A DNA stretch of 64,000 nucleotides from Giardia intestinalis (lineage: Eukaryota). Positions 13,700 to 14,157 of this stretch are shown piece after piece. The stretch lies in NCBI GenBank assembly GCA_000002435.2, contig CM018793.1; one strand, written 5' to 3'. The notes below the pieces were generated by a model, which made no database searches, was not told the DNA's origin, and was given only the letters and a program-made list of their open reading frames with translations. Position numbers and translations under genes: made by a program. Numbering within the stretch: the stretch's first letter is position 1; each line of letters begins with the position of its first letter.

Positions 13700-14157
13700 C
13701 TGAATCAATTAATCAGATCAGAATCAATTCGTCAGAATGGTTTGCACTTCCTGACTGCCGCCTCCCAGAAAAAAAAAATAACGCTGGCCTGCTTTCTGCT
13801 TTCGGGCTGTCTGTATGTCGCACTTCGGTGTCGTGCGGGCCCGGGGGCAGGGAGCAGACCAGGCTGGCCGGCAGCTGAACCGGGCGCGAACGCATCACAC
13901 ACATCCAAGGACAACGCGGTCTCCTCCCGGCGTGCACGGCACCACGCTGGGCGGTTCCGGGGGGAGGCCGCGATTTTTTTTGAAAATTTACAGGTTTTTT
14001 ATTCTGTTGAAAAGTAGGTAAACGAGCGCCAGCGTGTGGGAGCCTAGTGGGCGGACCGGCACACGCAGACGCACTTGTGGGGGACGCTTTCGTTTTTTTG
14101 GGCCCAGCCCCGTGCAGGCCCAAAAAAACGAAAGTGGGCACCACAAGGATATATACT
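13700..14157. repeat. Conserved inter-unit spacer, copy A (about 450 bp): AATCA-type short repeats, A10 run, 'tgtatgtcgcacttcggtgtcgtgcgggc' stem-loop, 'gggcggttccggggggagg', T-run, hairpin, 'atatatactact' junction.
   Basis: Aligns block-by-block with 19790..20230 and partly with 20737..20900. Confidence 0.7.
14087..14134. repeat. Perfect inverted repeat / hairpin: 18-nt arms 'ctttcgtttttttgggcc' and 'ggcccaaaaaaacgaaag' with a 12-nt loop.
   Basis: Read directly. Stem conserved in copy B (20155..20206) with a different loop. Sits 25 nt upstream of the point where truncated polB-B homology begins. Confidence 0.8.

Follow-up and report, generated by a model that had tools for sequence, protein, structure and literature searches.

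The stretch analysed here, a window of 64,000 nucleotides from a chromosome of Giardia intestinalis WB (assembly GCA_000002435.2, contig CM018793.1), carries an island of 60-63% GC that runs from 7160 to about 23000 inside DNA of ~51% GC and consists of head-to-tail units with collinear genes at a spacing of ~6.5 kb. Unit 1 opens with an intact gene, polB, for a DNA polymerase that belongs to family B and is protein-primed, unit 2 with a left-truncated copy, and unit 3 is almost fully decayed; units 1 and 2 each end in a hairpin-bearing spacer. We read these spacers, with a probability of roughly 0.8, as the right terminal regions of successive endogenised copies of a Polinton/Maverick-like element. 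The hairpin would then be a subterminal palindrome, and the ACTACT that closes each spacer would be the physical terminus of the element. The genes around the island are typically eukaryotic by Pfam (giardin, TBCC, proteasome ATPase). Of ten open reading frames that were looked up, eight match WB proteins exactly, among them delta-giardin, a tubulin chaperone, GluRS and 'putative DNA polymerase'; an archaeal or bacterial source, which the GC content had suggested at first, was rejected on these grounds.

The polymerase of unit 1 is intact and under purifying selection: the ratio of nonsynonymous to synonymous divergence (dN/dS) against its orthologues is 0.07-0.33, and the orthologues in several assemblages are 97-98% identical. 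The diagnostic domain, PF03175, is also present in all related loci, and Pfam recognises no domain in the N-terminal ~570 aa of the polymerase.

Conserved spacers and a linear relative

A sequence-only reading of this stretch had singled out the two spacers as conserved sequence with a hairpin, and both copies are as it described them in position and sequence: copy B keeps the stem with a different loop, and the same motif follows both hairpins. The perfect core is 15 bp in B against 18 bp in A. Spacers A and B are 72% identical over ~467 nt, 83% in the final 86 nt and fully in the final 14 nt. This last stretch, GGATATATACTACT, occurs exactly at 14147-14160 and 20217-20230 and nowhere else in the window (~0.06 expected). 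The perfect core of hairpin A extends into an imperfect stem with 31-nt arms (14074-14147). Folding, which the sequence-only reading had proposed as a check, showed both hairpins to be far more stable than shuffled sequence: as single-stranded DNA, A reaches -31.3 kcal/mol (z = -7.5; 0/200 shuffles equally stable) and B -31.8 kcal/mol (z = -6.4; no shuffle equally stable). The hairpin pattern occurs twice in the window, with 0 occurrences expected.

Related contigs were gathered by exact and homologous look-ups of the window's proteins, and three of them hold the hairpin spacer together with the terminal motif: P15 of assemblage E (L002, 12241-12710), L003 (12468-12945), which stops exactly at ...GGATATATACTACT, that is, at ACTACT, and the more distant L006 (~16160-16812), which reads TTTACGTTTTTTTGGG ... 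CCCAAAAAAACGTAAA ... GGAATACATACTACT. Together with two ends of the metagenomic relatives described below, this gave seven termini (WB A, WB B, P15, L003, L006, the right end of L011 and the inverted left end of L014) that could be aligned in one shared register. The 29-pair helix is 88.6% paired across them, and 14 of the 29 pairs show double-sided, compensatory changes, against 7.2 ± 1.7 in shuffles, none of 500 of which reaches 14, and at most 6 in controls with a slid register; the covariation score is 0.415 vs 0.18. All terminus hairpins beat their shuffles (z = -6.4 to -12.4), the T6G...CA6 core is invariant in all seven, and every copy has 13-16 unpaired nt between stem and terminus. 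Because the seven termini are related, the shuffle statistics overstate independence, and we place the main weight on the slid-register control and on the changes that separate lineages with only 54-55% polB identity. The stem is supported as being under selection for self-complementarity, and the earlier proposal of selection on structure is borne out. A G.G mismatch in alignment columns 17 and 72 (window 14081/14140 and 20151/20210) is kept in 6/7 termini while other stem positions covary; it is possibly a recognition feature.

But what kind of molecule ends in this way? A linear relative of ~19 kb is represented by contig_3874_polypolish (ENA ERZ27273579, 18,931 nt; L014 covers its bases 1-13019 and L012 its bases 1004-18931) and by its sister contig k141_64424 (L011; ERZ27287779, 19,920 nt), both from metagenomes. 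The polymerase of contig_3874 is 54% identical to that of the window, and the two relatives together give 54-55%. In order, contig_3874 encodes proteins of 918, 244, 106, 195 and 778 aa, a Pox_A32-like ATPase, proteins of 510 and 238 aa, the protein-primed polymerase, and proteins of 198, 319, 336 (rve-like) and 505 aa. It has terminal inverted repeats of ~260 nt, the first 262 nt being the reverse complement of the last ~240 nt. The end of L011 reads '...CCATCTATACTTTTTTGAA ggtatg TTCAAAAAAGTATAGATGG gctgtgattgt TATATACTACT', which amounts to a hairpin with 27-nt arms and T6/A6 runs, a spacing of 14 nt, and the window's terminal undecamer at the last base of the contig. The left end of L014 is the L011 end inverted, starting 9 nt inside, and the right end of L012 stops within the hairpin. 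On the opposite strand the window's terminus reads 5'-AGTAGTATATATCC with a 3-nt reiteration, and this short direct reiteration at the extreme end, 5'-AGTAGT, is shared by the L011 end and all window-type termini. Because the contig ends have the same layout of hairpin, spacing and TATATACTACT as the window spacers, the spacers' architecture appears homologous to that of the terminal inverted repeat in a linear element with a protein-primed polymerase, whose right terminal region they would be. From inside to outside, this region would comprise the inner promoter cassette of the last gene, conserved blocks, the palindrome with its ~30-bp stem (T6G...CA6), ~13 nt, and the true terminus ...TATATACTACT-3', or 5'-AGTAGTATATA on the other strand; the free linear form would have the same structure in both terminal inverted repeats. 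There, 14 nt separate the hairpin from the end of the DNA, and it falls outside all transcription units, with the terminal genes pointing inward from the inner edges of the repeats.

Their gene content and ends make the ~19-20-kb contigs candidates for free linear genomes, viral or plasmid, of a Giardia species. The A32-like ATPase is recognised in a full Pfam scan of L011 (PF04665, 26.9 bits vs a cut-off of 22.8; 5747-6694), and its orthologue in L012/L014 has only a 'faint' precomputed PF04665 annotation. L011 also carries a deoxynucleoside kinase, ~41% identical to that of unit 1. Next to the packaging ATPase lies a 778-aa open reading frame (L014 4709-7045, minus strand; P0094) for an extremely K/R-rich basic repeat protein with recurring W-x-R/K motifs (GWRYVKV, EWRHCRVKR, GWCRMRVR, GWGWRF); a homologue search returned two proteins. 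The description also holds for P0095, which sits on a contig of 19,806 nt. Scanning JGI metagenomes for hairpin plus terminus gave 28 matches, all due to chance, and IMG/VR gave none; a polB-based scan of IMG/VR found no relatives.

Junctions, divergence and gene content of the units

The terminus is an exact, recurrent breakpoint that is polymorphic among near-identical strains, because the same last base of ACTACT is joined to five different partners. In WB, it is followed by polB codon 173 at junction A and by a polB remnant at junction B; in P15, by the stop codon of an e319-like gene, minus-strand and of 730 aa, and then by an integrase gene, again a left-truncated element unit; in L006, by unrelated GC-rich DNA; and in L025 (SRR31077515) by 'GACGGTCTGGATCAGCTCCTTGGTGCAGAA', which agrees with the reverse complement of polB 7370-7399 (codons ~70-80) in 25/30 positions. 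L025 is 99.7% identical to WB over 1.3 kb of unit 2; after its spacer B terminus, inverted polB 5' sequence, of which 29 nt are available, stands in place of unit 3 (L025 1290-1333). That the site is defined rather than a product of random decay, as had been suggested, is supported by the joining of one base to five sequences in different genomes. Contrary to what had been thought, the truncated polB copies do not begin with the spacer, which belongs to the preceding unit as its right end; the first, full-length polB has no spacer before it. The restart of polB homology at internal positions stands, with changed details. In unit 2 it begins at 14160 (equivalent to 7677), directly after ACTACT and inside codon 173 instead of 172, and in unit 3 the remnant begins ~95-130 nt past the motif and is clear for codons 570-588. 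Seven independent short-read contigs, which stem from different SRA runs, cross junction B (20230|20231) at 99.9-100% identity, and one of these contigs is common to at least 20 samples; junction B is not an assembly artefact. Of the worry that the junctions might be chimeric, this disposes for junction B; for junction A, the related contigs include no independent spanning contig, L003 stopping at ACTACT.

How old are these units? The polB of unit 2 is 88.9% identical at the nucleotide level to that of unit 1 and 91.1% to the polB of L009 type, found at the syntenic position of its own genome. Between units 1 and 2, the synonymous divergence (dS) is 0.33 and dN/dS 0.22, like comparisons of intact orthologues, indicating that the unit 2 polymerase evolved as a functional gene for most of this divergence. 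Since assemblage A and E orthologues differ by a dS of only 0.07, unit 2 is not a recent in-situ duplicate of unit 1. Across adjacent genes, synonymous divergence between A and E is a mosaic with a more than 10-fold range (window 1776-12723 vs L002): WB and P15 differ by 0.07 in polB, 0.09 in hyp198, 0.15 in a small open reading frame (orf84), 0.58 in the deoxynucleoside kinase gene, 0.94 in the 958-aa gene and 1.12 in the 809-aa gene. This suggests recent exchange or gene conversion of element parts between lineages.

Table 1. Features of the window, by position; assignments to element ends are our reading of the locus
Feature	Position	Strand	Remarks
809-aa gene	1776..4205	+	N-terminal ~200 aa homologous to the second gene (244 aa) of the linear relative
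GL50803_16686 (958 aa)	4214..7090	-	homologous to the linear relative's first gene (918 aa)
Unit 1	7160-14160		polymerase of 1198 aa (PF03175), deoxynucleoside kinase, small open reading frame, hyp198, ankyrin gene, spacer A
Full-length polB, unit 1	7160..10756	+	PF03175, E = 5e-37; exact match to Giardia WB protein, 'putative DNA polymerase'
Deoxynucleoside kinase, unit 1	10763..11815	-	PF01712
Copy of the terminal region's first ~110 nt	12728..12834	+	divergent promoter cassette, between hyp198 and ankyrin gene
Terminal region A	13680..14160	+	putative right, inverted-repeat-type end of unit 1; ankyrin start codon to terminus
Second small hairpin-like block	13803..13843	+	also 19910-19950 and 20753-20793; found by reading the sequences
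Subterminal hairpin A	14074..14147	+	perfect 18-bp core 14087-14104 / 14117-14134, loop 14105-14116
Terminal motif A, GGATATATACTACT	14147..14160	+	putative element terminus at 14160
Unit 2	14160-20230		polB minus 172 codons, deoxynucleoside kinase, hyp198-like, hyp147, spacer B
polB, unit 2	14160..17229	+	without codons 1-172; frameshift near 15470 in this assembly
Deoxynucleoside kinase paralogue, unit 2	17232..18293	-	PF01712 on a 353-aa product; 47% aa identity to the unit 1 kinase
Terminal region B	19788..20230	+	putative right terminal region of element unit 2
Subterminal hairpin B	20145..20216	+	15-bp perfect core with G.T-containing extensions; loop differs from A
Terminal motif B, GGATATATACTACT	20217..20230	+	putative terminus at 20230
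Unit 3	20231 to about 23000		almost wholly decayed; polB remnant and older-spacer fragments
polB remnant, unit 3	20324..20554	+	~230 nt; codons ~558-638, protein identity clear only for 570-588
Older terminal-region fragment	20690..20870	+	inside unit 3; matches the L006-type version; has promoter-like 'ggaaaataaaATGacg' and the small hairpin

The homology of GL50803_16686 to an element gene indicates that the element-derived island reaches to the left of polB. In unit 2, the frameshift splits polB into open reading frames at 14075-15478 and 14560-17229, the older WB annotation having an intact 980-aa 'DNA polymerase, putative' (XP_001707491.1); the frameshift is either a sequencing difference between the assemblies or a very recent pseudogenisation. 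Giardia depends wholly on deoxynucleoside salvage, and two non-TK1-like deoxynucleoside kinases have been counted in its genome (PMC11662666). Because the kinase genes sit in virus-derived units and L011 carries one as well, at least part of this salvage kinase set may be element-derived, and a third paralogue is possible. Giardia dAK (GL50803_17451) was considered as one of the window's kinases and set aside, its published primers (PMC11662666) not matching the window. The ankyrin gene (12840-13679, minus strand) contains 93-nt tandem units of one ankyrin repeat each at 12955-13586, with 61-78% identity; the P15 version is shorter (168 aa).

No rve integrase lies inside the window. The longer G. 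intestinalis-type loci L015, L001, L006 and L009 contain genes homologous to those of the element for 198, 319, 336 (rve) and 505 aa, though their order is rearranged, and homologues of its 918- and 244-aa genes are also part of the G. intestinalis-type locus. The integrase homologue in L015 is full-length (342 aa, 50% identity), and a fragment of one lies right of the terminus in P15. The block 106-195-778-ATPase-510-238 is absent from the chromosomal G. intestinalis-type loci. A 607-aa open reading frame of L006, considered as a second polB, was not supported as such.

Further repeats mark the inner parts of the terminal regions. A promoter-like 'ggaatct...gaaaataaaATGacg' upstream of the full-length polB (7126-7168) recurs there, facing outward to the terminus, at 13766-13790, 19884-19905 and 20722-20748, with ATG mutated to ATA in spacer A and to ATT in spacer B; it could represent a promoter cassette that is shared and bidirectional, or be left over from recombination of the terminal region with sequence upstream of polB. 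The small block of ~41 nt is conserved and has hairpin potential, with a putative outer stem CGGGC/GCCCG, changed to GGCGC/GCGCC in the third copy, an inner stem CGCAC/GTGCG, a variable loop (TTCG, CTCG, CGAG) and the sequence GTATGT; a further copy lies at L006 16283-16350. A spliceosomal or trans-spliced intron was rejected, GTATGT being present in the spacer without the Giardia-type 3' motif, and a tRNA search found none. A third terminus was sought in unit 3, where only inner terminal-region fragments were found.

Possible replication origin, proposed joining of the units and alternatives

Among protein-primed replicons, adenovirus jumps back at its CATCAT end, and phi29 and PRD1 slide back. 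By analogy with the adenovirus end, the AGT AGT reiteration and its AT-rich stretch would be the origin for terminal-protein-primed, jumping-back initiation, and the palindrome a recognition or structural element for the initiation machinery, the integrase, or both. It might act as duplex, or else in single-stranded form on the displaced strand, a 3' tail beside the hairpin then possibly taking the place of a panhandle. The truncated polB genes would belong to older or foreign copies that lost their left parts when the intact terminus of another copy joined an internal position, giving the order of intact unit 1, unit 2 lacking 172 codons and almost fully decayed unit 3. The sequence-only reading was partly right in proposing an origin-like, recombination or template-switch site: its defined end survives as the terminus matched in a linear relative with terminal inverted repeats, while we infer the origin function and the mechanism of joining only. 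A chromosomal cruciform origin, which it had also proposed, is not indicated.

For the joining itself, we tentatively consider a successive invasion, at somewhat less than even odds: an incoming linear copy would recombine homologously with the resident on its left, and its protected right end would join a break in the resident polB. This fits the shared left synteny, the age gradient of unit 1 < unit 2 < unit 3 and the L009-like character of unit 2. A more doubtful route is template switching, in which the strand-displacing polymerase would run off the terminus and switch template, forming head-to-tail or inverted concatemers that recombination would later fix; it would explain direct and inverted junctions alike. 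Aberrant integrase action, as a one-ended or otherwise aberrant strand transfer or as nested insertion followed by deletion, seems to us unlikely. Nested insertion would need extra deletions, as unit 1 has neither a left terminus nor a polB 5' fragment to its left.

The stacking of progressively older, left-truncated units (unit 1 > unit 2 > unit 3), the junction polymorphism of L025 and the mosaic of dS between A and E also raise the prospect, which we regard as rather improbable though worth stating, that Giardia hosts a still-active ~19-kb protein-primed linear replicon or virus whose incoming or replicating copies undergo repeated recombination with the relic in the chromosome, exactly at the terminus. 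The covarying hairpin would then be the cis-element that makes the end both origin and recombination hotspot, by polymerase template switching at run-off or by end-joining of terminal-protein-protected ends.

Several points weigh against the identification of the spacers as ends of a Polinton/Maverick-like element, or against parts of it. The origin function of terminus and hairpin is argued purely by analogy, and the wobble events (6 G.T vs 2 A.C, not significant) do not distinguish the folding strand. The left terminus, 5'-AGTAGTATATATCC, was sought in the window and not found, which leaves only right-end copies there, so that the inverted repeat is demonstrated only in the autonomous relative and not in the Giardia WB copy. 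Every element copy recovered lacks at least one end in host DNA, and no 6-bp target-site duplication of the Polinton type came into view. The rve-like matches of the relatives, which fall in the same core region (E = 6.6e-5 in L012, 23.5 bits vs a Pfam cut-off of 32.6; 1.8e-3 in L011), stay below the gathering score, and a PDB profile search gave no match. No capsid, penton or protease gene was matched by Pfam in the other open reading frames of L011, L012 and L014, no gene for a terminal protein was recognised, and the 778-aa product looks by its composition like a nucleic-acid-binding, core or terminal-protein candidate and not like an obvious capsid. The ending of contigs at ACTACT could reflect branching of the assembly graph and not a physical DNA end. 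Giardia as host of the 19-kb element is likewise concluded indirectly, because of Giardia-type 'AAATAAAATG' start contexts, gene homology and co-occurrence with the Giardia contig L015 in the same sample.

Among the alternatives, the one we take most seriously, while still holding it to be the less probable account, is that hairpin and terminus mainly form an end processed by an rve-type integrase, a transposon end and not a replication origin, with the terminus-to-internal joints arising when the 3'-OH at ...ACT is transferred to other element copies in a one-ended or aberrant reaction. The rve-like integrase of the autonomous element and its full-length homologue in L015 speak for this, as do joints that preserve the terminus to the base, like those made by transposases. 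Kapitonov and Jurka reportedly described in 2006 that Polinton termini are 5'-AG...CT-3', and the termini here are 5'-AG...CT-3' as well. Against it stand the sub-threshold integrase matches and the want of a left end, a target-site duplication and a nested left polB fragment left of unit 1; moreover, it is compatible with an origin role, as both machineries must read one end. That the spacer instead works at the level of RNA, as a structured non-coding RNA or as a terminator or insulator for the upstream genes, as the sequence-only reading had considered, is very improbable in our view. The strong covariation of the stem, a second small hairpin with a UUCG-like loop and the outward-facing promoter-like 'gaaaataaaATGacg' in the inner part of the terminal region could be cited for such an RNA. 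Yet DNA palindromes covary whichever strand or molecule is selected, no Rfam family is reached at gathering score, and at E <= 1 only miRNA-like hairpins match (25 bits vs 70-89). In the free element, the hairpin lies near the DNA end outside inward-pointing terminal genes, and none of the element's genes is transcribed in its direction; what comes after the stem is GGATATATACTACT and not the T-run of an intrinsic terminator; and the host is a eukaryote. Giardia 3' ends are set by a short AGTRAA-type signal and are not known to depend on hairpins.

Head-to-tail units, collinear genes and the regular ~6.5-kb spacing would equally be expected of an ordinary tandem segmental duplication with internal deletions, in which the spacer is a duplicated intergenic region and the hairpin incidental. 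This is largely refuted already, and we consider it scarcely probable: unit 2 did not arise by recent copying of unit 1 (dS 0.33; kinases 47% identical) and is nearer to the polB of another lineage, the same terminal base is the breakpoint in five contexts as well as the end of the free 19-kb relative with its terminal inverted repeats, and the hairpin covaries across lineages whose polB is only 54-55% identical. Least credible of all are chimeric junctions. Repeats do hamper assembly, and the contigs L001 and L003 break at the terminal region, but the seven independent short-read contigs span junction B identically, and the N-terminally truncated 980-aa polymerase of the older WB annotation (XP_001707491.1) is consistent with junction A.

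Known systems and meaning for Giardia biology

How does this end compare with known ones? The Giardia protein-primed polymerase has already been placed among those of Polintons (Yutin et al. 2015, Fig. 6; PMC4642659). Likeness to Polintons/Mavericks extends to a protein-primed PolB (here in the window), a candidate rve-type integrase (sub-threshold here), an A32-like packaging ATPase (L011), a linear unit of 15-20 kb, terminal inverted repeats measuring a few hundred bp (in the 18.9-kb relative, ~260 nt, within the 100-1000 bp of Polintons), 5'-AG...CT-3' ends with a short terminal reiteration, and endogenous copies in protist genomes. It differs in that no capsid, penton or protease gene is recognised and no target-site duplication is seen, and in that the Giardia version in the chromosome has undergone rearrangement, is without the putative morphogenesis block and has deoxynucleoside kinase and ankyrin genes. 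We know of no report that describes, as a feature of Polintons, a subterminal hairpin of ~30 bp that covaries strongly and lies 13-14 nt away from the end.

The adenovirus origin (5'-CATCATCAAT...) likewise has a directly repeated trinucleotide at the end (AGTAGT here) followed by an AT-rich stretch, lies within the inverted terminal repeat of a linear genome encoding a protein-primed polymerase, and has auxiliary elements just inside the core origin; its auxiliary region, however, binds NFI/Oct-1 and is no long hairpin, and for the Giardia element terminal protein and initiation are predicted by analogy. The ends of Streptomyces linear plasmids and chromosomes share hairpin palindromes within the first ~100 nt of a terminal-protein-capped replicon, with structure conserved more than sequence. 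Unlike the Giardia element, they are bacterial and have several palindromes, replicate internally with only end patching being protein-primed, and show no homology. Within Giardia itself, Arkhipova and Morrison reportedly described in 2001 the tandem arrays of 5'-truncated GilM/GilT retrotransposons, which are likewise head-to-tail with a constant 3' end and variable 5' truncation. However, these are non-LTR retrotransposons that arise by target-primed reverse transcription, whereas the units here are DNA elements with a protein-primed polymerase and no reverse transcriptase. A closed hairpin telomere of the poxvirus or parvovirus type does not fit the 13-16 unpaired nt after the stem in every copy.

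Finally, we would like to place the finding into the context of the parasite. The feature is real, an unusually well-supported subterminal hairpin with hints of recent activity. Our search of the literature found no description of a Giardia Polinton terminus or terminal inverted repeat, of the hairpin, of a free ~19-kb form or of the junction array. An unexplained spacer thereby becomes a precise landmark, likely to mark where a Polinton-like element of a major human parasite physically ends and probably has its origin. At least 20 kb of the WB chromosome would be virus-derived, including hypothetical genes annotated as host genes (GL50803_16686), an intact polymerase and deoxynucleoside kinase genes. 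We know of no earlier polintovirus-like DNA virus or plasmid linked to Giardia, so that the ~19-kb linear genomes with inverted terminal repeats in Giardia-containing metagenomes would, to our knowledge, be the first. CRESS-DNA viruses have already been linked to Giardia (PMC7493932).

For the wider family, the hairpin with its invariant T6G/CA6 core and conserved G.G mismatch offers a mutational target for studying how eukaryotic protein-primed elements recognise their ends, and the exact-terminus junctions may serve as a natural record of element recombination with endogenous relatives. Should Giardia indeed host a still-active replicon, the stacked units, the junction polymorphism of L025 and the mosaic of synonymous divergence would be the footprints of its ongoing activity.

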